Shown here one piece after another: positions 17,274-64,000 of a stretch of 64,000 bases of DNA; position 1 is the stretch's first letter, and the number at the start of each line of letters is the position of its first letter. Origin of the DNA: Lingula anatina. Its lineage: Eukaryota > Animalia > Brachiopoda. Below the pieces are notes generated by a model. It did no database searches, was not told the origin of the DNA, and worked only from the letters and a program-made list of their open reading frames with translations. Made by a program: the position numbers and the translations under genes. The stretch is taken from positions 16,368,001 to 16,432,000 of the forward strand of contig CM120645.1 of assembly GCA_051362555.1 (NCBI GenBank), given 5' to 3'.

Positions 17274-17316
<43 letters not shown>

Positions 17317-18925: not shown

Positions 18926-18980
<55 letters not shown>

Positions 18981-20290: not shown

Positions 20291-20321
<31 letters not shown>

Positions 20322-34287: not shown

Positions 34288-35442
34288 TGCCTCGGTCACA
34301 ACCGGACGCACGAATTTCAGAATCGCACGTCCTCTGCGATTTTGGGGTGTTGCGGAGGCCGTGGAGGTCGTAGAGGTAGAGGAAAGTCTGACTTGCGAGT
34401 CGCAAGGGCCACATGAGATGTCCTTTCAAACAGGGACGCTAATTGCAAGGAGCGGTGGGCGTTGAAATTGTACTCACTTCTTGAGTTTGTCTTGCTTCCT
34501 GTGTCTTTGGCACACACTCACCACTTACGAAGGGACTGCAACGCACGGCGAAAGTAGTGCCCTTTTGCGTCAGTTTTGCTTCTCACTCGCCTCACACGTT
34601 TGTGTTGACGTACTGACGGCGTACATGAGTTTTTGTTTCCTTTCTTCACCCTCCTCTTCTTCTTTCTTCTCCCTCCTCCCCTTTTTCTAATATGTACCCG
34701 CACGAAAACGAAGTAGCTACTCCAGCGCACTAGACTACTGCAATCATACTGCAAACATGCTTCAAATCTGCTTCGATGTGGGAGCTAATTAGCATATTTG
34801 AAACATGCTTCTATCATGCTGCTAATCTACTGCATTAATGCTCCTTCTCTGTACAACCCTATGTAAAGGCCATAGGCCATACTGCATTTCTACTGCAAAT
34901 ATGCTCCACACCACTACTGCGTTAATGCTTCTTTGCTACTTCGATACTACTGCATTTTCTTGCGGGTAAGCTTCTTTCTCTTGCCTTTTGGAGGTATATT
35001 AGAAACTAAATTGAGCAAAAATTTGAAAATTTTGAAAATGGTTGTACACGTTACACAGTCGATGTTCATTGTAAAGACACGAGCGTGCTTCGTGAGCACG
35101 CCTTTTATACACTAGGCGTGGGGGTGACGCACGTGCGAGGCATTCCCGGTGTGCTCTCGACTTTGTTCGTTAGTTGTGAGGGCGTGCGCCTTACTCAACA
35201 CGAAAAGGGCACTTGCTCCTTCATTGCTTGGGACGTGCGTCTTGCACAACGCGCGTCTCTCTTGCTGTTCGCAGGCTATTCGTAGAATGTTTTGGACATG
35301 TCCAACATCCTCCGCACGTGCTTTCGGGCTGTCTGCGAACTCCAAATTTCGTAAGAAGGACTCGCGTGGGACGTGAGTTTCTGCGCAAAATTTGGACGCA
35401 AACAGACCGTAAGAGCCCGTACGGCCGGTTGTGACCGAGGCT
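34288..35442 (+). mobile_element. Non-autonomous PIF/Harbinger element, copy A
   Basis: TIR GCCTCGGTCACAACCGG, TSD TTA; contains the nested MITE 34697-34966. Confidence 0.85.
34697..34966. mobile_element. ~270-bp MITE, copy 2, nested in Harbinger copy A
   Basis: TA-flanked, TIR CCCGCACGAAAA/TTTTCTTGCGGG; absent at the equivalent site of copy B. Confidence 0.85.
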
Positions 35443-35900
35443 TTAAGATGCTCTTTATTGACATTGTGTTTAGATCCATTGACCCAACCGCTTTCTCTGT
35501 CACCTTGGTTATTACTATGGCAATACAGTCGAGGTTAAGAGATTAGATAAGGCGCGTTGTACATTGAAAAGAGGGGTTTATGGCGTCATATCATATAACA
35601 GGTGTGGCAGGATTGCACGCCCTAGTAACGCAAGTCCGCCCGGACACTAAGTCCTGGAAATGCAAGTCCTAAGGCATTGGTTGCTAGGAATGGAAGTCCT
35701 AGGGCATACGTGACTAGGATTCAATGTCCGTAGGACGAAGACTCCCAAGTTATGTAAGTCGTGCGTGTAGTAATGCACGTCGTAATGGGACGTGCGTTCC
35801 AGACATTTAGTAATGCATGTCCTATATAGTTTACACCGATAAATGACATGATATAGATATAGAGATATACTAGTTTTAAAGATATAATAAAAGTTGGCTT

Positions 35901-35903
<3 letters not shown>

Positions 35904-35974
<71 letters not shown>
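35904..35974. repeat. (TA)n microsatellite
   Basis: Direct reading. Confidence 0.95.
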
Positions 35975-35977
<3 letters not shown>

Positions 35978-36358
35978 ATAGACAGTATATATATATATCC
36001 GATAGACAGTTTATATGCATATTATTGAAGTAACAAACACAATTTATTTATTTTATAAGTATTTTTCACCTAGTAAACGCAAATTTTAACATGTGTTAAC
36101 GCATACTTTTGGCGTACTCCTCCCTCGGTGCACTATATGTATGAGCCTGGTTTACCCAATATATTTTAACAAAATAAGGTACCATCCAGTGGCATTCCTT
36201 ACTCCTTTGAGGTATTTGTCTATTATTTTATGACCTTTTCTACTGGGGGTGTGCCTTTTGTGTTTTGCGTCGAAAAAATAGTTGTAATTGTAAAGAGCAC
36301 GGGATTTCGAACACATATTATACATTTAAAACACCATTATACATTTTGCTATAAGTAA

Positions 36359-37195
36359 AGCCTCGGTCACAACCGGTCGTACGGGCTCTTGCGGGTTGTT
36401 TGCGTCCAAATTTTGCGCAGAATTTCAAGTCCCACGCAGGTCCTTCTTACGAAATTTCGAGTTCGCAGACAGCCCGTATGCAAGTACGGAAATTGTTGGA
36501 CATGTCCAAAAGTTTTTACGAATAGCCTGCGAACAGCGGGGCTGCAAGCGTAACTTGCTCTCCTCGAACGGAGTTAGCAACAAAGACGCGCGTTGTGCAA
36601 GATGCACGCGCGTTGTGCAAGATGCACGTCACAATAAAGGAGCAAGTGCCATTTGCGTTTCGAGTAAGGCGCACGCCCTCATAACTAACGAACAAAGTCG
36701 ATAGCACACCGGGAATGCGTCGCACGTGCGTCACCCCCACACCTGGTGTATAAAAGGCGTGCTCACGACGCAAGCTCGTGTATTTATGAACGTCGACTGT
36801 GTAACATGTACAACAATTTTCAAATGTTTGCTCAATTTAGTTTCTAATATGCTTCCAAAAGGCAAGAGAAAGAAACTAACAAAGTAGAAAAAAGGGAGGA
36901 GGAAGAAGAAAGAAGAGGAGAACAGGAAGCAAAACTGACGTACGCCGTCAGTACGTCACCACAGACGTGTGAGGCAAGTGTGTCGAAGCAAAACTGACTC
37001 AAAAGGGAACTACTTACGCCGTGCGTTACATTCCCTTCGTAAGTGGTGAGTGTGTGCCACGTACACAGGAAGCAAGACAAACTCAAGAAATTAGTGCACT
37101 TTCTACGCCCATCGCTCCCTGCAATTAGGGTCCCTGCTTGAAAGGACATCTGATGTGGCCCTTGCGACTCGCAAGGCAGACTTGTGACCGAGGCT
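36359..37195 (-). mobile_element. Non-autonomous PIF/Harbinger element, copy B (inverted relative to A)
   Basis: TIR AGCCTCGGTCACAA / TTGTGACCGAGGCT, TSD TAA; reverse complement aligns along copy A. Confidence 0.85.
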
Positions 37196-39565
37196 TAATA
37201 TGGGGGGGGGGGGGGAGGTGAGGGGGCGGGGGGGTCATGTCAAAGGTACGTCACGAATACAAATATGTTTCAGACCGATTCATGAATACTTACCTTACGA
37301 ACCTTCACGCTAACCACTACACAGACGAGCTGGAGTTGCAAAGTTGCAACCACTTTTTGTCTGATATATGGCTCACCAGAAGGAATTCATATATATTTAT
37401 AATTGTATCATTTAACCGTATTATTGCGTATGGATAGGAATATTAAATAGCATGACTTACATTACTGTCATTGGTGTAACAGGAATAAGAGTCGGACAGT
37501 AATACAAGTTCTACTTACTTTAATTATAAGCCAAGAACCTAAGTCCCAGGAGGACTACAAATTCCAAGTCCGTAGGACCACGGTTCTTGGGGGAATTGGA
37601 TTACTGATACACCGGGACTAGTTGGACCCCCTGACGTCAATTGTGTTTTTCTATTAAATTGTGAGCCATCTGGCACTATATTTGAAAAATAATGACGTTG
37701 CCTAGTTCATAGTGCTTACTTTGAAACCGGTTTTGTTACTCTAGCTAACTCATTCTTAGTTGGCTTTACAAGGCCAAAAGTGTCTAACTGGGCCAACTAG
37801 CCTGGTCTCTCCTATCCATTGTTTTGTCAGACTGCATTATCCATGTGCAAATAGGGTCTTTTGGTAATTCGTATTTAAGTAAATTGAACAGAATCAAGTA
37901 CAAAACTTACCTTTACTGGACAGGTAATGGGTAAAAACGAAGAATGAAGGGAGTTCACGATGTAATTCTTTTCGGCGAAGAGACTGTCTTCCAAGAATTT
38001 GCGACTTCCATTAAATCGACCCCCAGATCAGCTGCCATCATTTGTATAACAAAAATCTAGGCAAAGTTGTTTTTTGCAGCTGCACATCCAGGTGTGCATA
38101 CGGCGTTTAAATACAAGTTTATTTTTCCAAACGTTTGAAAGGGTGTTCAAATGCTTTGAGATCAATTGCATCAAAAGGGCCACTCAATGGGATTCCCTAT
38201 AAAAATGATTAGGTATTCTAAAGACTAGCTAATATTTTCTGCACTAACGCTCCTTGTGCAGTATTTCATTTCTGTTCTTCCAGCGTAGATATCAAAATTG
38301 TCAAATTGAATGGTTAACGCCTGGATAACTTAAGACGCTCTCTTTATTGTGTTTAGTTTCATTGACCCATCAAGGTGACAGCCAAGTCGGTCTCTTTGTC
38401 GCCTTGGTTATCACTGAACACAGAAGATTATTCTGTTATCCAAATGAACGCACGTGAAACAGTAAACAAGAAGTTTCTGGTAAAAGCTAACAAAATCCTT
38501 CAGTGGTAGTGCGTGTTACTGTCACAAGATCGTTCGTTCATTAGAATGCAAACAACTTAGGGGAGAAATATTGTCTTTTACTTTTGGACCTATCGTCCCT
38601 ATTGGATACGGTGCATCTTCATGTACTTACAGTGTACATATACTGTTGTCATGCCTTGAATATAGTATAGGGTTAAAAAATATAAGGCGTTTAACCTAAA
38701 TTGTTTTTTATCAAATGAGTTAATATCATGAGTTATTTTATTTGAAATACTTAGAACACGACAGAATTTCCCCTTTTTAACCTATGCGTTGCATTACAAC
38801 AGCCCAGACGGTCACTCCCACCATCAGTTTAAGGGCAAACAGGCAAAAATTAGCACTTATCATTTATATTATCGTAAACATTCTAAATAAAAATTGGCTA
38901 AGGATCTGTGTTGACTGTCGATTATCTGCGTTCAGTCTATTTTTGCAAGGAATGGGGTTTACCCATTTATAGATCCTGTCATTTATACAAAATATGATTT
39001 ATATGACGTGACTTTACATTTGAACCGAAAAACCTGCCCAAAATTTCCATTGTTTTGTCAGTCCACTTTATCCAAGTGAAATTATGGTCACTTGGTAATT
39101 CGTATCTCAGTAAATATAACAGGACCATGCATAAAACTTACCTTTCCTGGGCAAAAGTGGGTTAAAACGAAGGATAAATGAACTCCATCACATAATTCTT
39201 TTTGGCGGATAGACTGTCTTCGAACGTGCGACTTCCATTAAAGCAGCCCCCAGATCAGCTGCCATCATTTGTGTAACAATAACGTAGGTCAAAGTAGCTT
39301 TTGCAACGGCATATCCAGGGTGCTTTAAAATATGGAAATATATATCTGTTTTGTTCACTGTGGGCGTTGTCGTTGTCGAGAAAGAGGGATCTGCGGAGGG
39401 AACAACATTACCAAAGTTTGCTACCGTATCGACGATACCTTGCCTTAGCGTCTAAAAACAGGATCCGTTCAGCTTTTGTTTTAGTTACCAACAAACAGGT
39501 GAGTGTACGCGCCACAGGCATCAAAATGGCTTTGATTTAGAAGGGTTTGTGGGCATAATTCGTCG

Positions 39566-39566
<1 letters not shown>

Positions 39567-39633
<67 letters not shown>
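39567..39633. repeat. (TA)n microsatellite
   Basis: Direct reading. Confidence 0.95.
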
Positions 39634-39637
<4 letters not shown>

Positions 39638-41376
39638 TTGTTTAGCCTCCCTTACACCGTTTTCCTTTATAATTGAAATCTTAATTGACATCTCAGGGGT
39701 ATTGTTATCCTTTATCATCATCCAGAAATCGAAAAAAGTGAGGATATTTGCTGTATCTAATCGTTCAATATTGTTCAAAAATATCTTTTTTTGCTGATTA
39801 CTGTTTCTACCCTCTTTCTATATTAATTTTTTACGCACGAAGTCAGCGTTTTTGTTGCGCAACCTGCTATAAATGAATAACGTACATGCGTAGTATCGTT
39901 TATATAATCTTTTTATTTGGAAAGAGAAGCCTGCTCGGATTTTCCTTATTTGTCAGAATGTGTTATCCGCGTGCAAATAGGATCGCTGGTTATCTCGAAT
40001 TTCAGTCAATATCGCAGAATTAGGCATAAAACTTACCTTCACTGATTTACATGACGTGACTTTTAATGTGAACATTTAAGCTGTTAAAAAGCCTGCTAAG
40101 AAATTTCAATATTTTTTTGTCAGACTGCGTTATCCACGTGCAAATAGGGTCACTATATATTTCATTTTTCATTCAATAGAATTAGGTATAAAACTTCCTT
40201 TTTTTGGACAAAATATGGCTTACAACGAAGGATAAATGAACTCCACGTTGTAATTCTTTTCGGCGAAGAGACTATCTTCCAAGAATGTGGGAATTCCATT
40301 AAATCAACCCCTAGATCAGCTGCCATCATTTGTATAACAATAACCTAGGCAAAGTTGTTTTTTGCAACTGCACATCCAGGTGTGCACACAGCATGTAAAG
40401 ACAAGTTTATTTTTCCAGGCGTATGAAAGGGTGTTAGCATGCTTTGAGATCAATTGCATCAAAAGGGCCACTCTATGGGATTCACTGTCAAAATAATGTG
40501 GTATTCTCAAGACTAGCACAAAAGTCTGCTATAACGCTCCTGATACAGTATATTATGGCTGTTCTACCAGCGTGAATATCAAAATCGTCAAACAGAAGGG
40601 TTAACGCATGAATAACTTAAGACGCTCTTTCTTGTGTTTAGTTTCATTAACCCATCAATGTGACAGCCAAGTCGGTCTCTTTGTCGCCTTGGTTATCACT
40701 GAACACAGAAGATTATTCTGTTATCCAAATGAATGCACGTGAAACAGTAAACAAGGAGTTTTGGGTAAAAGCTAACAAAATTCTTCAGTGGTAGTGCGTG
40801 TGACTGTCAGAAGATCGTTCGTTCATTTGAATGCAAACAACTTAGGGGAGAAATATTGTCTCTAACTTTTGGACCTGTCATCCCCATTGGATACGGTGCA
40901 TCTTCATGTACTTACAGTGTACATTTACTGTTGTCATGCCTTGAATATAGTACAGGGATAGAAAATATAAGGCGTTTAACCTAAATTGTTTTTTATCAAA
41001 TGAGTTAATATCATGAGTTCTTTTTTTTAATACTTCGAACACGACGGAATTTCCCTTTTTAACCTATGCGTTGCATTACAACAGCCCAGACGGTCACTCC
41101 CACCATCAGTTTAAGGGCAAACAGGCAAAAATTAGCACTTACCATTTATATTATCGTAAACATTCTAAATAAAAATTGGCTAAGGATCTGTGTTGACTGT
41201 CGATTATCTGCGTTCAGTCTTTTTTTGCAAGGAATGGGGTTTATCCATTTATAGATCCCGTCATTTACACACGATATGATTTACATGAAGTGACTTTTCA
41301 TTTGAACTGAAAAACCTGCTCAAAATTTCCATTGTTTTGTCAGTCCACTTTATCCAAGTGAAATTATGGTCACTTG

Positions 41377-42444
41377 CATGGCCAGAAATGCGCAGCATTC
41401 ACGCGATACGCGAGGGCGCTACAGTAGGGCTTCACGTGACTCAACTAGCCAATCGGAGCACAACAATGGCATCGCACACAGACTTTGTGATAAGTGCTCA
41501 GCCCATTGTCAAGTAGTGTTAGTTCATGGTAACAAGCGTCTGACATGTGCAGAGAAGTTTATTGTAATATATATTGTTCTTATTGTTACATTATTAAATC
41601 TAACTCTGTATCCAAGTAGTTACTATACTGTACCAAGTCAGGTACTGATGATGTGCAGAGGTCATATATTCCAGAATATTTATAACTAATTTATAACTTA
41701 AATTTTGTTTAATATGTTATTCATCAAAGAATTCATGAAAGATTATTTTAATTTGTTAAATCGTGATCTTATTCTTTTTATATACAAATAAATGAATAAT
41801 TTGGGTAAAATTGGTCTTCCACTTATTTTTTTGCTTTTTCCCTTTACTACAAGATTAGTTTGGAACAGTTGCAGCATTAAAATTTAAAATAAATAGCAAT
41901 CTGAAAGAAGAATTTTGCATTATAAAATGATGATATGAATTTTGGATTAAGAGATTAGTTAAATACTGAGTAGTGATATTGTCAGTCAATTTATGTAGAA
42001 TCTGATAGTATGATTGAAAATACTGATTGAATTCTTGGCCTTGCACTGGGCCGTTTCACATTTGTGCCAAGTGCTTTTTTTGGACTCCATTGTACAGTGA
42101 AAGACGTGCTTCAATTGCCATGAAAGTTTTTAATCAGACTCTGTATGGTGCTGCTATCTGCTGGAGCTATCGGCAACAAATTAGTTTGCCTTTGTTTCTG
42201 AGTGAATCTACCGTCTAAAATCACTATTTCTGAAAATACGTGCGTTTTGCTGAGGGTAGGCTTGGCAATACACGGCAAACTTCTTAGCTGTCTATCGGCA
42301 TCAGGTCGTTAGTTTGTCAATGATCACGAATTTCCCACGAATCGCGAACCCATTCATTTCCCTATGGCAATCTAGCAACTCATTAAAAGCGCACGCATGC
42401 GCAGTGGGCTAAGCGTGACGTCATACAGTGCATTTCTGGGGATG
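41377..42444. mobile_element. 1.07-kb TIR element inserted into the duplication array
   Basis: Interrupts GGTCACTTG^GTAATTCG, which is intact in sibling units; imperfect TIR CATGGCCAGAAATGC / GCATTTCTGGGGATG. Confidence 0.75.
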
Positions 42445-44516
42445 GTAATTCGTATTTAAGTAAATATAACAGAATCATGCATAAAGCCTACCTTTTCTGG
42501 ACAAAAGTGGGTTAAAACGAAGGATAAATGAACTCCATCATGTGATTCTTTTTGGCACAGAGACTGTCTTCCAAGAATGTGGGACTTCCATTAAATCAAC
42601 CCCTAGATCAGCTGCCATCATTTGTATAACAATAACCTGGGCAAAGCTGTTTTTTGCAATTGCACATCCAGGTGTGCACACAGCATGTAAAGACAAGTTT
42701 ATTTTTCCAAGCGTATGAAAGGGTGTTAGCATGCTTTGAGATCAATTGCATCAAAAGGGCCACTCTATGGGATTCACTGTCAAAATAATGTGGTATTCTC
42801 AAGACTAGCACAAAAGTCTGCTATAACGCTCCTGATCGTCAAACAGAAGGGTTAACGCATGAATAACTTAAGACGCTCTCTCTTGTGTTTAGTTTCATTG
42901 ACCCATCAAGGTGACAGCCAAGTCGGTCTCTTTGTCGCCTTGGTTATCACTGAACACAGAAGATTATTCTGTTATCCAAATGAATGCACGTGAAATAGTA
43001 AACAAGGAGTTTTTGGTAAAAGCTAACAAAATTCTTCAGTGGTAGTGCGTATTACTGTCAGAAGATCGTTTGTTCATTTGAATGCAAACAACTTAGGGGA
43101 GATATTTGTCTCTAACTTACACACGATATGATTTACATGAAGTGGCTTTTCATTTGAACCGAAAAACCTGCTCAAAAATGCCATTGTTTTGTCAGTCCAC
43201 TTTATCCAAGTGAAATTATGGTCACTTGGTAATTAGTATTTCAGTAAATATAACAGAATCATGCATAAAACCTACCTTTTCTGCACAAAAATGGGTTAAA
43301 ACGAAGGATAAATGAACTCCATCATTTGATTCTTTTTGGAAGAGAGACTGTCTTCCAAGAATGTGCGACCTCCATTAAATCAGCCCCCAGATCAGCTGCC
43401 ATCATTTGTGTAACAATAACGTAGGTCAAAGTAGCTTTTGCAACGGCATATCCAGGGTGCTTTAAAATATGGAAATATATATCTATTTTGTTCACTGTGG
43501 GCGTTTTCGTTGTCGAGAAAGAGGGATCTGCGGAGGGAACAACATTACCAAGTTGTGCTGCCTTATAGCGTCTAAAAACAGGATCTGTTCAGCTTTTGTT
43601 TTAGTTACCAACAGGCAGGTGAGTGTACGCGTCTCATGCATCAAAATTGCTTTGATTTAGAGGGGTTTGTAGGCATATTTCGTCGCTTATATACATGCCT
43701 CATATCGTTTTCTTTTAATTTACATCTCAAGGGTGTTGTAAGCCTTTAATCATCATCCACAAACCGAAAAAATGAGGATATTTCCTGTATCTAATTGTTC
43801 AACAATCCAAGTATCTTTGTGTTGATTTAAAACTTTATAAACCCCCTCATGTGGTCGGCTCATGCCGTGGTTAAACTACCTCTTATCAAAATAACACGAT
43901 CCAAGGCTGGGCCCCTGGGGCCGTATGTTTTGACAGTGCCCCTAGTTAAAAGCTTTGATATTGTTTGCGGGACGCTCGAGATTGAAAAATAATGCTGTGA
44001 TTTCCTTGGATAATTTTTTTTTCACGTGTGTGTGACGGAATGATTAGATGTTTCATTTTTTTTTTATATTTTATGTGATAAAATAACTGTTCGTAGCCGT
44101 GTACAGTCTACTACTTTTTACTTGCGTGTTGTGAGGCGTACGTCTCACCTCAGCGTGGTGTGGAAAGAGGCGTCTCACCTCTTTATGATTTTCAAATGGT
44201 TGTACGGGTGACGTACAGCCTAGTGGGGAAGGGGGTTGACTTGTTACAGAAAACGCTTTTCGGTTACAAGTGACCTTCATCAGCTGCAGAGTCCGAATGA
44301 TAGGGGGTGTGAAGGGGGTAGTTAGTGATCAGTGCTGTGTTCAAAACAGTGGTTGGCACATGGGGAAAAACCAATTTTTCAACTAGAGGATCAGAGAGGC
44401 GATACCACCTCCGAATATTGTACCACCAACTGGAGTAAGCGCGATCGTATAGACACACACACAAAAAAAAGGGACACCACCACCAGTCTTATGCTTGACA
44501 AGCTGTAAAAAATGCA

Positions 44517-47497
44517 ATCAACAAGAATTCTCAAAATATGCAAAAAATATATATAACTAAAAATGGTACAATCAAAGTTCAGTTCATAGTGAGGTAGGCC
44601 AAAGGTCAATTCAAGGTCACAGTAAATGCCAAGTATATGACTTCCTTTTCAAGTTCAATAGCAACTATGGGCCTATCTCTGCCAGTTTTGGAGATAAAAG
44701 GGAACCAAAATTTGCAAATTTCAATTCATGATGAAAAGTAGGTCAAAGGTCAATTTCAAGATCACATTTAGATTGCCACTATATGACTTCCTATTTAAGT
44801 TCAATAGCAACTATGGGCCTATCCCTGCCAGTTTTGGAGATAAAAGGGAACCAAAACTTGTTAACTTCGATTCATGATTAAAAGTAGGTCAAAGGTCAAT
44901 TTCAAGGTCACACTTAGATTGCCAGTATATGACTTCCTATTCAAATTCAATAGTAACTATGGGCGTATCTTTGCCATTTTTAGAGATAAAAGGGAACCAA
45001 AATTTGTAAAGTTAAGTTCATGGTAAAAAGTAGGCCAAAGGTTAATTTCAAGGTCACACTTAGATTGCCTCTAATGACTTCTATTCAAATTCAATAGTTA
45101 CTATGGGCGTATTTTTGCCAGTTTTGGAGATAGAGGGAACCGAAATTTGCAATGTTAAGTTCATGGTGAAAAGTAGGTGAAAGTCAATTTTAAGGCCACA
45201 GTAATTTGACTTTAATGACTTCATATTCAAATTCAATAGTAACTGTGGACCTATCTCTGCTAGTTTTGGAGATAATTTGGACGAAAAGTTGCAAAGTTCA
45301 ATTCATGATGAAAAGTAGGTCAAAGGTCAATTTAAAGGTCACATTAGATTGCCCGTATATGACTTCCTATTCAAGTTCAATAGTAACTATGGACCTATCT
45401 CTGCCAGTTTTGGAGATAGAAGGGAAAAAATGTGTAAATTTCAGTTTATGGTGTAAAGTAGGTCAAAGGTGAATTTCAAGGTCACATTTAGATTGCCTCT
45501 AATGACTTTTATTCAAATTCGATAGTTACTATAAGCGTATATTTGCCATTTTTGGAGATATAAGGGAACCAAAATTTGCAATGATAAGTTCATGGTAAAA
45601 AGTAGGTCAAAGATCAATTTAAAGGTCACAGTAAATCGACTTTAATGACTTCATATTCAAATTCAATAATAACTATGGACATATCATTGCCAGTCTTGCA
45701 GATAAAAGGGAACGAAAATTTGCGAAGTTCAATTCATGATAAAAAGTAGGTCAAAGGTCAATTTCAAGGTCACATTTAGATTGCCAGTATATGACTTCCT
45801 ATTCAAGTTCAATAGTAACTATGGACCTATCTCTGCTAGTTTTGGAGATAAAAGGGAACAAAATTTGCAAATTTCAGTTCATGGTTATAAGTAGGTCAAA
45901 GGTCAAATTTAAGGTCACATTTAGATTGCCAGTATATGGATTACTATTCAAGTTCAATAGTAACTATGGGCATATCTCTGCCAGTTTTGAAAATAAAAGC
46001 ATTAAAAATTACAAAGTTCATGGGGTAAAGTAGGTCAAAGGTCAATTTCAAGGTCACATTTAGAGTACATGACTTCCTATTCAAGTTCAATAGTAACTAT
46101 GGACCTATCTCTGCCAGTTTTGGAGATAAAAGGGGACCAAAATTTGCAAAGCTCAATTCTTGATGAAAAGTAGGCCAAAGCTCAATTTTAAGGTCACATT
46201 TAGATTGCCAGTATATGACTTCCTATTCAAGTTCAATAGTAACTATGGACCTATCTCTGCTAGTTTTGAAAATAAAAGCATTAAAAAATTGCAAAGTTCA
46301 GTTTATGGTGTAAAGTAGGTCAAAGGTCAATTTCAAGGTCACATTAAGATTGCCAGTATATGACTTCCTATTCAAGTTCAATAGTAACTATGGACCTATC
46401 TCTGCTAGTTTTGAAAATAAAAGCATTAAAAAATTGCAAAGTTCAGTTTATGGTGTAAAGTAGGTCAAAGGTCAATTTTAAGGTCACATTTAGATTGCCA
46501 GTATATGACTTCCTATTCAAGTTCAATAGTGACTATGGACCTATCTCTGCCAGTTTTGGAGATATAAGGGACTAAATTTTATAATTTTGGTCATTTTAAA
46601 AGGTCATTTTGGTCAAAATTATTCAAATGGGAGGTGCTCTGTAGTTCCAGATGTTCAAATTTGATAAAATAATGTCATTTTTGACCACAAGTTGTCTGCC
46701 TCGCCAATCCTTATGTTTTATTTTTCTGGGGTTCAAAATTTATTATCCATTACCGTACTGTACATTTTGCTTTCACCACCAATATGTAATTTTATGATAC
46801 AGCGTAACTCGAATACTGTATGGAATACAAAAAAACATGCTTTACATGCTCTACAAAATGCAAAAAAGAATGGGTCTCTAGCATTAACGGTTCCCGAATT
46901 AGAGACAGTTTTTAGTTTCTGTATCTTATGGCCGCTACTCCCGTGAAAATGCACCGATTGACCCCAAATTCACGGGGATGAAAGATGACCCGAAGGGTAA
47001 CACTTTCCAGTAATATTATTGGTAAAGTCTGTGTGGTGTCTGAATAAGAGCGCAAATAATTTTTTTTCGTAAAAAAATTCGTTTTTTTGAAAATTTTGGC
47101 CCGTTTGGCCTTGAAATAAAGGTCAAAGGTCAAATCCAAAGGCATATTAGAAATCTACACATATGACTTTTGGAAAGCTGTCTGTAGAAAATTTTCCCAT
47201 AATTCCTTCCGTAGGGTAGATAATTAGCATTTAATTTTGCCATTTTTGGACAAGGGTGCATTGCAATGAGTGCCACACCTAAACCCCAATACCGACAAAG
47301 CCCAAATTTTACGTGGAACGAGTTGAGATTATAGGTGACCTAAATCCAAGAGATGGGTTAGAGGCCCTTACCGTCTAGGAGGAGAAGCGGTAACGGTAAC
47401 TTGTCGGCGGAGCCGGGGGAGCCGGCGGAGCCGGCGGAACGATCTGGTCGGGACTAAAAACATGTGTACCGCCAGCGCTAACGCTGGTGGTACAATA
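44517..47497 (+). mobile_element. Helentron/HINE-like non-autonomous element carrying a satellite array
   Basis: Starts near AACAAG, contains an internal tandem array and GGCGGAGCC short repeats, and ends in the hairpin TGTACCGCCAGCG-CTAA-CGCTGGTGGTACA plus ATAAA. Confidence 0.6.
44590..46575. repeat. Satellite array, ~144-bp unit, 14 copies
   Basis: AAGTAGG-type anchor at ~44593, 44736, 44882, 45028, 45171, 45313, 45456, 45600, 45744, 45889, 46028, 46168, 46313 and 46458. Confidence 0.95.
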
Positions 47498-53654: not shown

Positions 53655-54690
53655 CATTACGTAATATGCTGTAATTTAATTGGTTAGTGATCGTTTGGGC
53701 AGGTCAAAACTTGGCTTTGGCAAAGCATGGTTCTGTCAAAAACGTATTCATATGTCGGCAACTACTGCATAGAATAATTTGAAATTTTGCATGCGTGTGG
53801 TCGGTTTTGCAGTGTGTAAAATAAACTATACAGTGCTTTACACTTTTGTTATTATGTGGCAGAATGGCACGGAAAAGACAGACATTGCCAGACAGATAAT
53901 TGCGCCAAACGAAACGGTCTGCACAGTATTAAAGAATAATTTCCAGACTGATGTACCTACACAGAGGCCACGCCCAACGTATTAAAATCTTGCCACCGGG
54001 GTACAAGACCCACTGTCTTTCGTGATACGCTGTTGCAACTAAACAAAAAACACTCAGTCCGTTTAGAAGAAGGGGTAAATTGCTACCAAAACGCATTTTT
54101 CAACACCCTTAGCAAACACCATACTTGGTTTTTTAGCAGGTTAGAATACCAAACGACCTCCGAGGGACCCGATGTAAACAGGATAACATCGTTGTATGTT
54201 TGTCAAATGAATTGGGGACCTTGGCCGTTTCTGGGTTGAACACTGAAACCTCGTTGCTTTCTTTATTGAGGTCAGATTTAACCTGTACCGCTCAACTAGT
54301 CAAAATAGAGTTTAAAGACATCCAGAAGAGGCCAGCGACGAAGCGTGTACCGCGTCTAAAGTGACTTAGACCCCATTCCCAGAGATTGGATCGATCTACT
54401 TTAGATCGACCTAACTCCCTGGGGGTTCACGCTAAATAGCTGTCAGTCGAGCGGACACGAAAGTTATTTACCCTCTTACAGCTTGTAGTAGGCGGGACGG
54501 ACATTTAAGCCGGATTATCTGACAGTAATCTAGTGAGACTCCCCGCGGGGATAGATCGATCTAAAAGCTCTGAAAATACAGCCTAAGGTCATTAACAGCG
54601 TCAGTATTTGGGATGGATACGACATTGGTGCCAAAACATCAATGGTTGTCATCGACGAAAACCTGAACCAGATCAAATAAAGGAATAATG
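53655..54690 (+). pseudogene. Highly decayed Tc1 relic related to 20495-21270, interrupted by MITE copy 2
   Basis: Collinear matches TTACGTAATATG, CAGAATGG...ATTGCCAGACAG and GCCAAAACA...GACG-AAA...AACCAGAT with the 20.5-21.3 kb Tc1. Confidence 0.65.
54369..54583 (+). mobile_element. ~215-bp MITE-like repeat, copy 2
   Basis: Homologous to 8280-8482; TA-flanked. Confidence 0.8.
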
Positions 54691-55009: not shown

Positions 55010-55294
55010 TATCAGCTGCCATCATTTGCATAAAAAAACGTACGTCCAAGTTGCTTTTGCAGCGGCACATCCAGGTGTGCTTTGAAAAGGTGAAATTATA
55101 TATCTATTTTGTTTACTGTGGGCGTTGTCGTTGTCGAGAAAGAGGGATCTCCGGAGGGGACAACATTACCAAAGTTAGCTGCCGTATCGGCTTATTAGCG
55201 TCTGCAAACAAGATCCGTTAAGCTTTTGTATTAGTTACCAACAGGCAGGTGAGTATACGTGCTTCGAATGGCGTTAATTTAAAAGGGTTGGTAG
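55010..55294. repeat. Dispersed B-type unit of the duplication array; Gypsy target site (continues at 63514-63538)
   Basis: Matches 43390-43672; the right flank GTAGGCATATTTCGTCGCTTATATAC matches 43669-43694. Confidence 0.85.
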
Positions 55295-55575
55295 TATAGA
55301 AATCCCTTACGCTAATCAACTCTAGCTCCGGATATTTCTACTAATATTCTGCTTACCTTAGCAGTAACGAAATCCCTTTCCTATAGATAACCACTAGAAA
55401 TCAGGATTCCAACCTCTCTCTCTATCTTGAGTCACAGATATGGCGTCGCCCTTTGTTCTCAGTGCTCCTCGCTGTAACCCACTCCTTACAGCTATCGAGT
55501 TACTCGCAAACTGACACTCAGCCTCGACTCGGATCGAGGCCAAGACAAGCCAAACACCGATGCCGGATCACTACA
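55295..55575 (-). repeat. 3' LTR
   Basis: Identical to 63233-63513 except for 2 substitutions seen by eye. Confidence 0.95.
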
Positions 55576-55586
55576 CTCCTCCCCAC
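55576..55586 (-). other. Polypurine tract
   Basis: Minus strand GTGGGGAGGAG directly before the TGTAG start of the 3' LTR. Confidence 0.85.
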
Positions 55587-55915
55587 TTTATCTGGATTGG
55601 AGGTAGTCATTACAATCCGACACCAACAACACACTCTTACGATCCTTGTATCACTACTCGATCAGCCCATGCTGACCCAGCCAAGGACCTCCCACTCTAT
55701 TCTCTCTACCAGATTTCTTGTCGCTTCTCGATCAGCCCCAGCTGACCAGCCAAGGAATCAATATACGGTACTCATCACTAGGAATACTCCTTCCCAGCAT
55801 CTACTCCTGACCAGGTCATACCTCTCCTGGCCAGCGTCGTGGTGCACTGAAAATTGAGCCCCCACTGGTCTAACCAGCGCTCATTCTCCTCAGTCCTCTT
55901 GAGGATATTTTCTTA

Positions 55916-56130
55916 GGCTCTGTTCTCACAACTTTTAGATCGATCTATCACCGCGGGGAGTCTCACTAGATTACTGTCAGATAATCCCCCTTAAGTGTCC
56001 GTCCCCGCCTACTACAAGCTTTAAGGGGTAATTAACTTTCGTGTCCGCCCGGCTGACAGCTATTTAGCGTGAACCCCCAGGGAGTTAGGTCGATCCAATG
56101 TAGGTCGATCTAATCTATGAGAATGGGGTG
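55916..56130 (-). mobile_element. MITE-like repeat, copy 3, inside the Gypsy 3' UTR
   Basis: Reverse complement of 54369-54583; TA-flanked. Confidence 0.8.
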
Positions 56131-56155
56131 TAACTCTCCACCACGAATCTTGACC

Positions 56156-56716
56156 TTAACCCTTCCCAGGGTCATGGCCTGGACGCACCAATCGACGTGT
56201 GCAATCCTCACACTTATACTTCTTTATCGAGAGGGCGTCAGACGCAGTAATGTTAAAACAAGACCCATGATACCATTCACTACAATAATCGCACTGTATC
56301 ATAAATCGGCCATGCCATTTCTGTCTACAGTTACAATACACTCTGTCATCCCCCTTGACTGTAGAGTCAACCACAGGATTTTTTCTCAATTGCTGGATCC
56401 ACAGAGGTATCCCACTGTCTCGACAAGGTTTTAACCTGTCATGATTGGCCACGAACACCGCATTTCTTACCTTCACCCGGTATAAATACGAGCTCAGCCT
56501 CTCCACGATGACTCCCGGACCCTTCCACGGGGGACATAGTTTCTTACACTTCCCCCGGCCCCCGGCCGCATCCAGTATGTAAACTGAATCCCCGACCGCA
56601 TAAGTGCGCTCCAAAATCCTCAGGTCGTAATCTCTCTTCATACGCTTAGAAGATACTTTGAGCTTACCTAGGGCCGTCTCGTGCGCCTTCTGTAGGTCTG
56701 CTTCTAACTCAGCCAC
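56156..56716 (-). CDS. Gypsy integrase C-terminus (GPY/F-like region) plus PHD finger
   Basis: KKLCPPWKGP...ANHDRLKP followed by C4HC3 VYCNCRQKWHGRFMIQCDYCSEWYHGSC...YKCEDC; frameshifted from the integrase core. Confidence 0.9.
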   Translation of the reverse strand: MAELEADLQKAHETALGKLKVSSKRMKRDYDLRILERTYAVGDSVYILDAAGGRGKCKKLCPPWKGPGVIVERLSSYLYRVKVRNAVFVANHDRLKPCRDSGIPLWIQQLRKNPVVDSTVKGDDRVYCNCRQKWHGRFMIQCDYCSEWYHGSCFNITASDALSIKKYKCEDCTRRLVRPGHDPGKG

Positions 56717-56729
56717 ATACCCCTCGGTA

Positions 56730-57524
56730 CTACTCGGCTCTCTTCCCTTCCATTATTCCAGCAGGAGTGTTGACTTCCCTGCCCAACATCAGCTTATTAG
56801 CCGTAAAACCTGTCATCCTGTTGACCGATGACCTGAGAGCCCCGGCAATTTGCTGTAGATGAAGATCCCACTGGTTTTGAATTCTCTCTGTAAAGCAACG
56901 CACTGCGTCCATCAATGTCCGATTGTACCTCTCAATCTGACCATTGGAAGATGGGCGATAGGGTGTCGTCCGTGCTTTATGGATATCCAATATCCTACAC
57001 ACCTCAGTGAACAGCTTCGAATCAAAATTTCTTCCTTGATCCGTGTATATTTCAAACGGTACCCCAAACCGTGAGAAAAACTGTTCGACTGCCGCCTGCG
57101 CTGTCTCCTCGGCAGACTGCGATGGAAACGGGATGCACTCCACCCACTTGGTAAACTGGTCAACCATCATGAGTATGTACTCATTTCCCCTGGTGCTCTT
57201 CGGTAGAGGACCCAGAAAATCCAAGTGTACACGTTCCATAGGTTCTCCAGCCTGGAACTCGGTTAAAGCACCCCGGCCATGTCTTGCCGACTTTTTATTC
57301 TGATTGCAACTTGCGCAGCCTCGCACAAGTTTATCCACGTCTCGGCCTAACTTGTGCCAATAAAAACGTTCTCGAAGTCTCTCTTTAGTCCTAGAGACTC
57401 CCTGATGTCCTGCTGATGGTAAACAGTGGTGTAACTCGATTGCCTTAACTCGCAATCCATGTGGAAGCACTAACTTCTTATCGTCAGTCTTCGGATCTGA
57501 CCAATACAATACACCATCAATCAT
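56730..57524 (-). CDS. Gypsy integrase (HHCC zinc finger and DDE core)
   Basis: HHCLPSAGHQG...CASC; VHLDFLGP, YTDQGRNF, NGQIERYN. Confidence 0.95.
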   Translation of the reverse strand: MIDGVLYWSDPKTDDKKLVLPHGLRVKAIELHHCLPSAGHQGVSRTKERLRERFYWHKLGRDVDKLVRGCASCNQNKKSARHGRGALTEFQAGEPMERVHLDFLGPLPKSTRGNEYILMMVDQFTKWVECIPFPSQSAEETAQAAVEQFFSRFGVPFEIYTDQGRNFDSKLFTEVCRILDIHKARTTPYRPSSNGQIERYNRTLMDAVRCFTERIQNQWDLHLQQIAGALRSSVNRMTGFTANKLMLGREVNTPAGIMEGKRAE

Positions 57525-58555
57525 TACAAACTCTCTCTATCCAGCCAATAAGACTTTAACTCCTGGCTCCCTCTGAATAGAGTAGACTGATTTGGAATAA
57601 TGGCGTTGTCCACATACTCCCTGATCAGATTCACATCATGATCCGCTTTCTGTGCCGCTTTCACCTCTTCCACTGAATACCCCCAACTGCGCAGCCCTGA
57701 GGTACTCTTACTCTCAGCCTTCACAGTTGATCTCGACTCTGTACTATTAGAGCCCACTTCAGCTGGTCTGGACTCTACATCCTTAGAGTCCACTTCAGTT
57801 AATCTCGACTCTACACCAGTAGAGCCCACTTCAGTTGATCTCGACTCTGCACCAGTAAAGCCCACCTCCGTTGAACTCGACTCTACACCAGTAGAGCCCA
57901 CTTCAGGCGTTCTTTTCATCTTTTTAGCCTGCCGACGAGTGGTGACCACATTAACTCGGACCGATTTCCCTGGGTCCCATGGGATATTCTCGATCACCTC
58001 TCTCAACATCTGGTACTCAGGCATCTCTTCCACCTTTTCATCAGGCGAGGTATCTACCACTGGCCCCAATACCTCCGGTTCTGAAAACTCCCTCACTAAG
58101 TCAACCATAACAGTGTTTACCGTCTTGCCACTGTTACTCTGTCGGTTACTTGAGGTTTCATCGCTTTCGACGCTCCTGGTACCCCCTTGGTTTTCCCTTC
58201 GGATCACCAATGGCACCACATCAGCAACCTCCTCCTCAAACCTGGCCCAGTTTGAGTGAGCACGTTTACAATATTCACATCCTCCACAGGGTAGATCTCC
58301 AAGGCGCACCCCTGTCCCAAACGTTAAACACTGCCCCGTGTGTCCAGCTCTTGACAGTGCATCCGCGTTTGCATGAAGTCGCCCTGCCCGATGTGATAGA
58401 ACCATGTTGAACTGCGACAGCTCCTCTAACCATAGCGCCAACTGACCCTGCGGCTCCTTGAACCTCATTAACCAACGCAAGCTTGAGTGGTCGGTTCTCA
58501 CCATGAATGGCCTCCCCAGGAGATAGTGTCTATACTGCCTGGTGAAACGTACACT
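57524..58555 (-). pseudogene. End of RNase H and repetitive linker of pol
   Basis: YRHYLLGRPFMVRTDHSSLRWL...HANADALSR, CGGCEYC, then 10-aa repeats (STEVGSTGVE). Most of RNase H is missing upstream. Confidence 0.85.
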
Positions 58556-60688
58556 GAAAATTGTTCTTACCAGTCATGGCATACAGTGGAGCAGCGAGTT
58601 TGGAAAAGTCCTTGATAAACGCCCTGTGGTAGTTTGCTAGGCCCATAAATTTCTCAACATCCTTTCCACATGTTGGCATCGGCCAATCTCTGAACCACCT
58701 GGATATCATGCTCCGACATGGCTAAGGTGTCACCAGTCACTACTCGACCTAGAAACTCGATCTTTCTTTGGAAGAAAGAACACTTCTTTGGCTTAAACTT
58801 AAGCCCATACGCTCTAAACCTCATTAGAGCCTCACGCAGATTCTGCAGATGAATCTCGAAACTCGCACCCAGCACCACTATATCGTCCAGAAACGCCAGC
58901 ACCGTCTTCCATGATAAACCTCGAAAGACCAAAATTCATAATTCTGGCATAGGTAGCTGGTGCCCCACAAAGACCAAACGCCATGCGAATGTGTTCATAC
59001 AATCCATACTTTGTTATGAACGCGGTCTTCTTTCTATCCTCCTCTCGAATGGGTACCTGCCAATAAGCTGAGTTTGCATCCAACTTACTAAAGAAAACGC
59101 TACCCGACAAGGTATCCAAACAATTGTTCACCAGTGGCAGTGGGAATACATCTTTAGTGGTAACTTCATTCAAAGCACGGTAGTCAATGCAGTAACGGAC
59201 GCTACCATCTTTTTTACGAATTAACACCGGCGCTGACGCCCAATCCGATGTAGATTCTTGTATTACCCCTGCTTGGATCATTTTCTGCAGATGAGCCTCC
59301 TCCTCATTAGCAAAACACACTGGTGTACGCCGCATCCTCTGCTTGATCGGCCTTGCTTGCCCCGTGTCAATAGTATGTTCTAAGGCAGTAAAATTACCTA
59401 AGTCAAACTCACTTTGGGCAAACACATCTTGAAACTCGGTCAGTACTTGACCCAGTTGAGCTTGCTGATCCTCGCTCAACTCTGTACTCGATTCCTCGAA
59501 CACCTTCTGTAAATGTTGAGGAACCACTGGCCTTTCTTCACCCTCGCCTTCGGCTGGTCTCACCTCAGGCCTCCGCGGTGCAGGAATAGAGTAATTTACT
59601 CTCACCACATCCTCTTCAGTTTGACTCGATGTCGTACTAGACACCCTCGACTCAGTCGAAACTGAACCACATTGCACATTTTCATCAAATGCTTGTCCAG
59701 ACGTCACGACTTTTTCATAAGAAAAAGCCCTCCCAATTTCTGACCCCTTCCGTAGCAGCTTATACCTGTCACTTGGGTTAATCAGCACCATAATAGGGTC
59801 ACTCCCCCTATTACGTATAACCCTTGGAACCAAGAAATGACACGCGCCCCTCTCCACTGGCTCTATGACATAATCATCGAGGTCCATGTCCATTTTACAT
59901 GCCACTCTGACTACAGAGTTAGGAGGAATTACCCGGCGCTCTGACACCATAACGCGTGCTACCTGGGGAACACCCTTCTCCAGGCAACAATCCAACGTTA
60001 AACTCATGTCATCGAAGTGCAGAATCCCTCTTCCCACATCAATCATGGCTTGACCCCGATCTCTCAATATGTCGACTCCCAGCAACATTTCTTCTTCCAA
60101 AGGAGCCACGTATACTGTTTCCGTATACCACTTGTGCCCAATTTTTAATTTTATCGGACCTGCGATAAAACCCGGCATAGCCATCTTCCGCCCTGCAGCC
60201 CACAACTGCACATCCTTTAATTTTCTCGGCGGATTTTTCAAGCTATTGTAGATACTGTCAGATAAAATGGTGACACGAGCACCGGTATCCACTAATGCCC
60301 TCACTGTTTTATCACCTACTCTGACTTTTAAAGAGTAGTCGGATACGGATCCAATCTGGTTCACATACACCACCTCTGGCTCAGGTGTGCTCTTTTCTGC
60401 TTCAGATCCTTTTTCTTGGGCCTTATCATCAGTTTCTTTGACGTCTGACCTAGCATCGTCTCGGATCGAGGATAGGCCCCCTACCTCGACCGCTTGATGT
60501 TCCCTGCTTTGCCCCTGAGACCTTATCTTGTCTCTTTTCCGAGGCATCTCCCCATCTCGGGCACTCACGGATAAAATGTCCCTTTTCCCGGCATTTAAAA
60601 CAAGTCCCATCCATAGGTCTACTCTCAGACTTGGACCCATTTTCTGCCTTCGGCGACCCACTTTTCTCGATCGCCTTCTTTTTCGCAT
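58556..60688 (-). pseudogene. Gypsy pol: aspartic protease and reverse transcriptase (frameshifted)
   Basis: ALVDTGA; WASAPVLIRKKDGSVRYCIDYRALN; FSKLDANSAYWQV; after a frameshift at ~58932, AFLDDIVV...KKCSFFQRKIEFLG. Confidence 0.95.
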
Positions 60689-62969
60689 CCAGTTGTAGAG
60701 ACTTACTTAATCCGAGTACGGTAATAGATTTCTCTATATTCTCCATTCGCTGGACCCACTTGGACATATCCGGATTAGGAGGTGTTTTCTTCTTCGCATC
60801 CAGCTGTAAAGATTTAATGGATTTCTCCATGTTCTCCATACACTGGACCAACCTGGACATCTCAGGTGTTGGGGGTATTTCGGCCGTCGCTACCTGATTT
60901 ACTCTCGGGTTTCCCTGACGACCCCTCCTTGGCACTGTGCGATCCATCACCTGGAACATTTGCTGATGCATTCTCACCAATCGCACTGCCTCACGAACAG
61001 TTGGAGGACTCCGCATATAAATAGCATGCCCCGCCTCCCTGTCCAATAAACCAGCACAAAATTGATTCACCGCCTGCATATCAGTGAATGATTCCGGCAA
61101 GCCCTCGTAAGCACGACCTGCCAGAGTTAACACACGATCAGCCCAGTCATCTAACAACTCATTAGACTCCTGAATTGAACTCTGGAAACGCGACTGTGCT
61201 GTAGCTGGTGTATCCCGCTCTCCGAACCGTTTCTCCAGTTCGTGCAGCAACACTCGTTATGTTAGGCCACCTACCCGCTGACTCAGTATAGCATAGTAGT
61301 CCTGAGCTTTTCCCCGCAGGCACCAACATAACCCATCGAGGGACAAGGCATCATCCCACTGTTCACGAGCTGCATGCCTGATAAATAAACTCTTAAATGC
61401 AGTCCAGTTACCACGCCCATCAAAGACTAAGTTTTTTGGTGGGTTAAACTTCCGTATTGGGGCGCTAGCTGTAGATTCCCATCCACCATCCTATGATCAC
61501 CATCGTGTCCTCCATTGACACCACTATATCCTCCCTGGACACCACGATGTCCTCCCTGGACACCTCTACCTCCGACTTCCATAGGGTAAGAAGCCTCATT
61601 AGTAGGAACTGGTTCCCAGGGTACATCAGCTCTCCTTTGAGAAATGACTGGAGCCTGGTATGGCCCCCCACAGTCATATCCTTGAGTGCTGATACCGGTA
61701 ACTGGTACTGGTTCACCATGGTCCGGTCTCAACCAGTCTTGTCTGAATGGCTCTAGAACCCGACCACAGTTTTCACGATTCGGTCCACCATGGCCCAGTG
61801 TAAATTCACCTGGTAGCTGTCCACCCTGCATATAAGCATGGCTCGGTCCATACTGATCTAGTGTGACCTGGTCTGGCTGCCACCCTGTTGGTCTGACATC
61901 ACGGTACAGTCCACACTGGTCTCGTGTGACCTCCCTTTGCTGCTGCCCGCCTTGCACACAAGCAAGACTCGGTCCACACTGGTCTCGTGTGACCCCACCC
62001 GGCTGATGCACATCTTGCATAAAAGCAAGATTCGATCCACATTGGTGTTGTGTGAACCCACCTGACTGCTGCCCATCTTGCATATAAACAAGACTAGGTC
62101 CACACTGGTCCCGTGTGACCACACCTGGCTGCATATTTACATGTCTGACCCCACTAGTCGGTCCATCATGGCCTTGTGTGAATGGACCTGGCTGATACAC
62201 TGCACCATAATTTTCATGACTCCCTCTGGTGAAAGTTGGGACTGGCTCTGTTTTCCAGTGTACAGTAGCCTGTCGCACTTGGCTGGTTTCTCTATTCCGC
62301 CCAGGTATACGCATATCATGAGTGAATGGAATTTTCACTACAGTATCATCCCCATGCCCTGGATTCTCGGGAATAGGACTTATTCCCCACGGAATTGTGC
62401 TTAACGTCCCTCTAGCTGACCCACGAGATTCCTGTCTGGAACCCACAGGAATCCCCCAGGTGCCTGGTTAACACCTGTCTGCTCCAGGTTTATTACCTCA
62501 TATGTTACTCGTCTCCAGTCTGTGTAGAAACCACCGTCTGCACTGAAGTGGAGACCATTTCCCTCATCCCCTCTCCTGTCTGTACAGGCGTGGAGACCAT
62601 GCGCCTCTCGTCAGCCCTTGGTACCTCACTCAAGGGTGACCGAATGGGTGTAGAAGTCCATAAACACCCAATCCCGAAACCCGAAGAACTGCTGGGCTCC
62701 CTTGACACCATTTTCTGATCCGCGCTGGTGTTACCTCCAGAGGCTTGCGGTACTGCAGAGAGGGTAGTATTAGGAGTAAAGTCCAATAACTCCAACACAT
62801 CATCAGTCAACTTTTTTCGAGTTATTAGTTGTAATAACTCCCTGGTGATTTGCCCACCATTTTGTCTCGCTGACACCATAGTTTCAGCTATTTTGTCACT
62901 AACACCCGGTATTAGTGACAGCTCCTGAACGTCAGCCGAGTTGACTTTAATGACATGTACATTCTCCAT
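60450..62969 (-). pseudogene. Gypsy gag (N-terminal HhH, repeat linker, capsid-like region, CCHC knuckle), disrupted
   Basis: MENVHVIKVNSADVQELSLIPGV...; LVFDGRGNWTAF; LEKRFGER; CFKCREKGHFIREC. Frameshifts near 62500 and 61445; in-frame TAA at ~61258. Confidence 0.85.
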
Positions 62970-63220
62970 ATTTAATATCAATATATATAAAAATGAAGAA
63001 CACAAACGACTATAAATATATTTTTATTGAAAATATATAAATATAGCCCCCTCTAGAAATAATGCACCCACAATTTAATTGTTACTTGCAAAATTTCTAC
63101 AAAACAGTAAAGTCTGCCTAAGCAAACCGCTGAATAAACTAGAAAAACAGCTATTTGTATGAAAAAACAAACAACTACTCGTTTTTAAACTTTTATTCAG
63201 CAACGTGGGCTCGTTGTTTT

Positions 63221-63231
63221 CGCTGCCACCA
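63221..63231 (-). other. Primer binding site, tRNA-Leu type
   Basis: Minus strand TGGTGGCAGCG 1 nt inside the 5' LTR end; complementary to the CGCTGCCACCA 3' end of eukaryotic tRNA-Leu(AAG/UAG). Confidence 0.8.
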
Positions 63232-63232
63232 A

Positions 63233-63513
63233 TATAGAAATCCCTTACGCTAATCAACTCTAGCTCCGGATATTTCTACTAATATTCTGCTTACCTTAGC
63301 AGTAACGAAATCCCTTTCCTATAGATAACCACTAGAAATCAGGATTCCAACCTCTCTCTCTATCTTGCGTCACAGATATGGCGTCGCCCTTTGTTCTCAG
63401 TGCTCCTCGCTGTAACCCACTCCTTACAGCTATCGAGTTACTCGCAAACTGACACTCAGCCTCGACTCGGATCGAGGCCAAGACAAGCCAAACACCGATG
63501 CTGGATCACTACA
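63233..63513 (-). repeat. 5' LTR
   Basis: 281 bp; reads TGTAG...CTATA on the element strand. Confidence 0.95.
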
Positions 63514-63538
63514 GTAGGCATATTTCGTCGCTTATATA

Positions 63539-64000
63539 CACTGTAAAAACAGTGTTAAGCTCCTAAACACATTTCTAAGCGCCTGTTTTGTCTCACTTTT
63601 TCCACGCGTTTAGCTCCTAACATGCTTAGCTTCTTAACACGTTTCACGCTTGTGTTTAGCAGTATGACGCGTTTGACGGCTTATAAATGTAGGGTGTATT
63701 TGTTTAACCTTTAGGTGCTAAGGGTTTCAACTGTTTTAGTCGCACACACGCGCGCACGCGCACACACACACACACACACACGAACTCACGGTCACTTTTA
63801 ACTGCTATAGTTATCTCTTTCTATAACAGGGTACCGTGAACTGTCAACATCGTTGACTTCCCACTATCATCTTTACAGCTGTACTTATTCATCCTTATGT
63901 TAGCTGACCTTGCGAGGAAGTTTATTGGAATGTATTTCTGAAAAGCAGGTTAGGAAAATTCACTAGTTCACTAAAGGCAAGAAACAACTATCAATTTTAC
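63539..64000. mobile_element. Probable left end of another DNA-transposon/MITE insertion
   Basis: Homology to the B-unit stops at TATA|CACTGTAAAAA; the other end is not visible. Confidence 0.35.

Follow-up and report, generated by a model that had tools for sequence, protein, structure and literature searches.

A PHD finger of the H3K4me3-reader type at the integrase C-terminus of a Ty3/gypsy retrotransposon lineage

The integrase of a Ty3/gypsy retrotransposon in Lingula anatina ends in a complete PHD finger. The fusion of finger and integrase is lineage-wide, the finger shows purifying selection, and the residues of its pocket are conserved. The element lies within the stretch of 64,000 nucleotides analysed here (the window).

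The element and its PHD finger

The element is a full-length Ty3/gypsy copy at 55295–63513 on the minus strand, with LTRs that are 99.3% alike and a 4-bp target duplication. Its parts and the sequences beside them are as follows.

55011–55294, continued at 63514–63540, plus strand: repeated target unit with a splice-donor-like motif
55291–55294, no strand assigned: 4-bp target duplication GTAG, partner at 63514–63517
55295–55575, minus strand: 3' LTR, 281 bp, differing from the 5' LTR at 2 positions
55576–55584, minus strand: polypurine tract adjoining the 3' LTR
55912–56136, no strand assigned: high-copy MITE-like repeat in the 3' untranslated part, no part of the element
56156–56752, minus strand: 198-codon open frame with integrase helix, SH3-like C-terminal domain, linker, PHD and stop
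56201–56341, minus strand: C4HC3 PHD finger at the Pol C-terminus (translation, Pfam, fold match)
56730–57536, minus strand: integrase zinc-binding (H2C2) domain and catalytic core, with a frame break before the C-terminal part
57524–60706, minus strand: protease, reverse transcriptase and RNase H, spread over several frames
60450–63023, minus strand: gag, in pieces (HHH_3, repeat-rich middle, capsid-like part, one CCHC knuckle)
63220–63231, minus strand: primer-binding site, 11–12 bases, one base off the LTR
63233–63513, minus strand: 5' LTR, 281 bp, starting TG and ending TA on the element strand

The two LTRs, the primer-binding site, the polypurine tract and the 4-bp duplication are those of a Ty3/gypsy element, with ends of TG...TA as against TG...CA, and Pol has the Ty3/gypsy order of protease, reverse transcriptase, RNase H and integrase with a GPY/F-type motif (WKGP at 56527, in the same open frame as the finger). 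An unoccupied paralogous site at 43669–43672 has GTAG once. The primer-binding-site motif, which we take to fit tRNA-Leu, recurs in three related loci (L001, L034 and L054), as does the TA-T-TGG junction at the LTR end; L009 has CA. A Ginger1 DNA transposon is ruled out by the LTRs and the reverse transcriptase, and Troyka, described with CG...CG ends, a 3-bp duplication and no GPY/F motif (PMC12440569), by TG...TA, the 4-bp duplication and WKGP.

Young as it is by its LTRs, the window copy is nevertheless disrupted by several frame breaks, one of which separates the integrase core from the C-terminal domain. Contigs from another run have different lengths at the same sites, which suggests that the breaks belong to this copy alone or to its assembly. 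The repeat at 55912–56136 was considered as a portion of the LTR and rejected as such. Contig depth over the LTR was about twice that over the element interior and about eight times that over the junction contig (run X1), values that served solely to place the LTR and have no copy-number meaning. Copies of the repeat (55912–56136, 54363–54587 and 8276–8489) have inverted ends and are abundant in RNA reads. Outside the high-copy repeats, RNA depth on the element is 0–2.7 in three raw RNA runs, which says little on expression. Repeats of 63 bp occupy 61783–62160 in gag, and shorter ones lie in the spacer between RNase H and integrase (57700–57900). The gag product starts with a helix-hairpin-helix (HHH_3, 62508–63023 on the minus strand), also seen in L012 and L034 and a possible marker of the clade. 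In all seven loci checked for it (L009, L012, L038, L042, L055, L064 and L075), gag and pol overlap with an identical frame offset, as would suit a −1 frameshift. The viral contigs gave no relatives of the element, and Rfam gave no match within 37000–64000 of the window.

Minus-strand translation of 56201–56341 yields a complete C4HC3 finger behind the integrase C-terminal domain, and reproduces exactly the peptide quoted in the initial annotation, which had located the finger correctly while drawing it one base too wide on each side (56200–56342). The HMMER comparison with PF00628 proposed there gives 33.5 bits against a curated cut-off of 24, with all 47 model positions covered, and 14 residues separate the finger from the stop codon. 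An AlphaFold model built from a 24-row alignment has a pLDDT of about 90 over the finger and 47 over the linker. Its residues 135–190 match the PHD fold, and among 48,161 chains compared the top match is the PHD of BPTF with bound H3K4me3 (Z 8.3, rmsd 1.7, 56 residues). Pfam finds no chromodomain in the window element at E up to 0.1; the PHD finger is there instead, directly after the integrase C-terminal domain and in frame, and it does occupy the chromodomain position of chromoviruses, as had been claimed. The proposal of an in-frame integrase–PHD fusion holds in the window for the C-terminal domain and finger and fails there for the catalytic core. Because that core lies in another frame, the fusion of core and finger rests on relatives: checked for an in-frame fusion, more than 100 of them carry both in one frame.

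Conserved residues of the finger and its probable ligand

The predicted cage of the window copy consists of Tyr, Trp, Met and Trp, with codons starting at 56338, 56317, 56302 and 56275. Cages are given as YYMW in KDM7 and YHMW in DIDO1 (PMC10321576; further definitions in PMC4915813). Met and the last Trp are present in all 114 intact element fingers, as are Tyr, Phe or His before the first Cys and Asp, Asn or Glu after the third. In a set of 343 host fingers enriched for the same type, 193 have the Met and 152 the complete set of three cage residues. Mutation of the cage Met or Trp has been called structure-disrupting (PMC4915813), and since both residues also support the fold, their invariance alone is no proof of ligand binding. 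The second cage position is Asp in 40 of the 114, Trp in 39, Tyr in 19, Cys in 7 and another residue in 9, and it changes along the tree; Asp at this position is shared with Drosophila Cfp1. The Y/W/M/W cage that had been read from the window is therefore present in that copy but is no rule of the family, in which Asp is as frequent as Trp.

The pocket for the H3 N-terminus is kept too. In PHF8, residues F19, I21, I45 and Y48 contact H3 A1-R2-T3 (PMC10321576), and their equivalents are Phe in 96, Ile or Val in 111, Ile, Met or Leu in 105 and Tyr or Phe in 111 of 111 element fingers. The equivalent of PHF8 E22 is mostly Gln. When the family profile is compared with solved structures, PHF2, Cfp1, DIDO, PHF8, BPTF and KDM7A come out on top at 67–75 bits among the best 60 of 149; EBS/SHL, Spp1 and Alfin-like fingers and TAF3 rank lower in these 60, and the ING fingers score about 30 bits. 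Family profile and fold match agree on a finger of the PHF8/CFP1/DIDO/BPTF type, in keeping with the comparison to PHF2/PHF8 drawn in the initial annotation. With the residues of an H3K4me3 reader present at both cage and H3 N-terminus pocket, and Y-W-M-W in the window copy, the finger probably binds H3K4me2/3.

It is quite unlikely, in our view, that the cage recognises a non-histone protein, from the host or encoded by the element, through a methyl-lysine or a hydrophobic motif. Such binding has precedents, in that the PHF2 finger binds an N-terminal peptide of VRK1 (PDB entries 7m10 and 8f8y) and the cages of KDM7 accept valine (PMC10321576), and the variation of the second cage position along the tree points the same way. 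However, the PHF8-type anchors for H3 A1-R2-T3 are kept as well as the cage itself, which fits a free H3-like N-terminus.

Judged by substitution ratios, the finger is under purifying selection. Over six independent pairs, taken from 32 loci and selected on similarity of the C-terminal domain, the finger has a dN/dS of 0.065, as against 0.096 in the C-terminal domain and 0.37 in the linker, with synonymous sites near saturation in three of the six and few changes in the two youngest. The unsaturated pair L046/L048 has 9.5 synonymous against 1.5 replacement changes. A ratio below 1 had been suggested as a check on the fusion, and the finger stands at about 0.07. This value largely refutes the notion of a passenger, a host exon caught by chance and without function for the element, and the invariant zinc and cage residues also count against it. 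The broken state of the window copy and the relatives without a finger would suit a passenger; yet the finger is kept across families whose integrase C-termini are 40–65% alike and in hosts of two phyla, and we find the notion scarcely credible.

Spread and history of the lineage

A search among longer proteins with the C-terminal frame gave 95 matches, of which 85 have a full C4HC3 finger; all but one of these 85 are retrotransposon proteins (84), the exception being a fungal Bye1/DIDO-like protein. Since that query itself includes the finger, a second search used the RT/RNase H of a relative. The 120 matches listed out of 3,397 contained 78 new proteins, and among the matches listed 40 of the 78 extend to the integrase C-terminal domain. 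By a tally made by eye, 30 of those 40 listed proteins have an intact finger, one has a Cys-to-Arg variant, four have broken remnants, three stop at that point and two have no finger. An Atlas cluster holds 80 integrase–PHD proteins, with Mollusca the commonest phylum, and a metagenome scan found an intact finger in 40 of 80 loci. Most finger-bearing matches are without a name; those with one come from Nucella, Haliotis, Mytilus, Pinctada, Diadema and Anneissia. The suggestion that the finger marks a retrotransposon lineage is borne out, the finger being common to the lineage as a whole, and at least ten related elements survive without it. In one relative, P0154, a Tpt1/KptA-type domain (PF01885, residues about 1060–1250) separates the finger from the C-terminal domain of integrase, and PF01885 also occurs in P0149.

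In a FastTree phylogeny of integrase with the finger left out (134 rows, 370 columns, after 14 truncated rows were dropped), eight finger-less relatives split from the other 126 rows with a support of 100. For scoring the trait, two rows in which the finger lies further downstream were relabelled and one frameshifted row was left out. The trait then requires two changes, one at the 8-versus-126 split and one for two finger-less Gigantopelta models. This fits a single gain with rare loss, as read from a tree without a named outgroup and a sample biased to finger-bearing proteins. The PHD phylogeny that had been proposed comprised 86 fingers and 48 columns, with KDM7 and animal DIDO outside the set; it was mostly unresolved and pointed to no single host gene as donor. 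A finger-profile search of every protein was filled by host proteins with several PHDs (BPTF, KDM5 and some CFP1-like proteins), which left single-finger donors unranked; 56 of its 150 matches were scanned in Pfam.

Most relatives carry a third gene. Among finger-bearing loci whose sequence runs 2.5 kb or more past the integrase, 21 of 25 encode a TatD domain there, and among finger-less loci with 2 kb or more, 8 of 10 do; the TatD gene seems to be older than the finger. PF01026 is above its cut-off in 13 of the 14 long frames scanned. The order in L009 and L034 is TatD gene, primer site, gag and pol, so the gene is internal to the element. It encodes 600–1,100 residues with a low-complexity middle, a small Cys/His cluster and then the TatD domain with its motifs mostly intact (L002: 2164–4284, L012: 8546–10990, L034: 2691–5018, L038: 6346–9588, L064: 6198–8069, among others), and may resemble TATDN2. 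All five of the motif patterns searched, which we assume to be catalytic, are kept in 72 of 99 TatD proteins. Named matches include Dreissena, Pecten, Argopecten, Ruditapes, Pinctada, Crassostrea and Lingula; no usable match to the gene came from the Atlas. By tblastn there is no TatD remnant in the window, and the family of the window element is without the gene, a DNA contig and RNA reads connecting the end of pol to a short 3' region.

Target choice and relation to known elements

Chromoviruses are the closest parallel, both being Ty3/gypsy elements with a methyl-lysine-reader fold right after the integrase C-terminal domain of Pol (Gao et al. 2008, as cited in PMC6673714). Here, however, the fold is a zinc-binding PHD rather than a chromodomain, the predicted mark is active (H3K4me) rather than repressive, and the relatives add the TatD third gene and a helix-hairpin-helix Gag. 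The element is chromovirus-like by anatomy but is not a chromovirus, from which its C-terminal domain sets it apart. The fingers of PHF2/PHF8/KDM7A, CFP1/Spp1, DIDO and BPTF share with it the C4HC3 fold, the Tyr-x-Met-Trp cage and the pocket for the H3 N-terminus; the element's fingers differ in having Asp, Trp, Tyr or Cys at the second cage position and Gln in place of PHF8 E22. Gypsy-7a_cRei and REM1 of Chlamydomonas are LTR retrotransposons with a PHD in the polyprotein and a proposed bearing on insertion, but their host is a green alga and the figure legend places the PHD before INT (bioRxiv 10.1101/2022.06.16.496473, with REM1 through citations there and in PMC6673714). Ginger1-9_HM of Hydra has an animal host, a Gypsy-like integrase, a GPY/F motif and a C-terminal PHD, but is described as a DNA transposon: it is bounded by terminal inverted repeats, lacks a reverse transcriptase and has an Ulp1 domain next to the PHD (PMC2836005). 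CopiaMBD of arthropods (PMC6673714) and the PHD of RAG2/RAG2L (PMC10629977) are likewise captured epigenetic readers linked to a DDE enzyme, with binding shown in those cases. The MBD, however, reads DNA methylation in a Copia element, and the RAG2 finger belongs to a separate subunit and another PHD type. The non-env ORF3s of the bdelloid elements Juno and Vesta are nuclease-type third genes past pol as in the relatives of this element, but encode a DEDDy exonuclease or a GDSL esterase as against the TatD fold, which the window family lacks (PMC5408684).

PHDs are said in PMC6673714 to be widespread in retrotransposons. The passages available on PHDs and integrases, with Repbase Reports and subscription journals outside their scope, describe PHDs in other elements and give no account of this clade, nor do the full-text passages on TatD and retrotransposons. 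PHD is not mentioned in the main texts of two surveys of mollusc and annelid LTR elements (PMC6238403, PMC8556966), of the Troyka paper (PMC12440569), of a study of errantiviruses (PMC13524379) or of PMC5890265. Repbase probably lists the families under plain names. The finger-tipped clade is real, conserved and lineage-wide and, going by these texts and with Repbase entries probable, apparently undescribed, as is the further accessory of its lineage, the TatD third gene.

On balance we incline to the view that the finger tethers the integration complex to H3K4me-marked nucleosomes and so biases insertion to active or open chromatin. The finger would remain on integrase after Pol cleavage and bind H3K4me3 or H3K4me2 tails. 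Once bound, it would hold the integration complex on marked nucleosomes, much as chromodomains do on repressive marks, and the tether would alter where copies land. If the finger does bind the mark, a role in target choice is probable. Chromodomains direct the integration of chromoviruses (as cited in PMC6673714), an engineered ING2 PHD tether moved a retroviral integrase toward start sites (PMC8149907), and the PHD of RAG2 directs RAG binding (PMC10629977).

The RAG2 PHD both localises RAG and stimulates it, and H3K4me3 itself is stimulatory (PMC10629977). The finger might bind methylated H3K4 without choosing the site, acting as an allosteric switch, as a signal that retains integrase or as a means of keeping the promoter of the new copy active. 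The CopiaMBD paper remarks that such domains may have no bearing on integration (PMC6673714), and the one insertion here bears no promoter signature. We nevertheless regard a finger without influence on the site as unlikely: it sits on a short linker past the DNA-binding C-terminal domain, where chromoviruses have their tether, and anchoring to a localised mark can be expected to skew the choice of sites.

The initial annotation had called the insertion, in a promoter- or first-exon-like unit, consistent with targeting, though a single observation. We do not count it as evidence of promoter targeting, as the target is a repeated unit, RNA depth beside the junction is below 2 in three runs, and the closest host exon found (dynamin-like, at about 17 kb on the opposite strand, from 30 frames scanned) is about 38 kb off. 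For these reasons the site neither shows nor excludes promoter targeting. Copies of the target unit that are 81% alike lie at 39254–39550 and 43391–43695, with partial copies at three more places; the unit has 43% G+C and a CpG ratio of 1.1, against 0.77–1.0 elsewhere. The three RNA runs list no splice joint from its donor-like motif. A repeated target with such a motif would suit a finger that steers to H3K4me2/3 chromatin beyond host promoters, such as element promoters, repeats or germ-line hotspots, as a safe and expressible site. With Asp as the second cage residue, as in 40 of 114 fingers, preference may shift to the dimethyl state. An invertebrate RAG2L finger prefers H3K4me2 (PMC10629977), and in Chlamydomonas the PHD-bearing Gypsy-7a has a preference for intergenic sites (bioRxiv 10.1101/2022.06.16.496473). 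Against this stands the fact that a single insertion is at hand, and the idea, very unlikely as an account of its own, is as much a refinement of tethering to active chromatin as a rival to it.

Tentatively, and with some doubt, we can picture an ancient Ty3/gypsy clade of molluscs, echinoderms and their kin that reads H3K4me3, aims at promoters without a host adaptor and in most members carries TatD, a mirror image of the chromoviruses. Self-encoded integrase readers are known for repressive marks, and a reader of a promoter mark would, if true, be the opposite strategy. Insertions near genes would then be predicted in many marine invertebrates, with effects on regulatory evolution. At one cage position the natural exchange of Asp, Trp and Tyr supplies a series for comparing me2 with me3 preference in a domain of 50 residues, and insertion sites can be compared between sister families with and without the finger that share a genome.

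Elsewhere in the window, three tandem units of about 2.3 kb each, made of a recurring 280-bp piece and without a coding match, occupy 37816–43700, and two of the three end in the splice-donor-like unit that the element interrupts. A second array (44607–46589) has at least 13 copies of a unit of about 145 bp. Host-gene exons at 2974–17092 on the minus strand comprise a dynamin-like GTPase exon and an apparently kinase-like end. A paired-box/HTH frame (20581–20949) inside inverted repeats of about 250 and 240 bp (19613–24306) is probably part of a decayed Tc1/mariner element, and further elements with long inverted repeats lie at 17277–18965 and 34384–37183.
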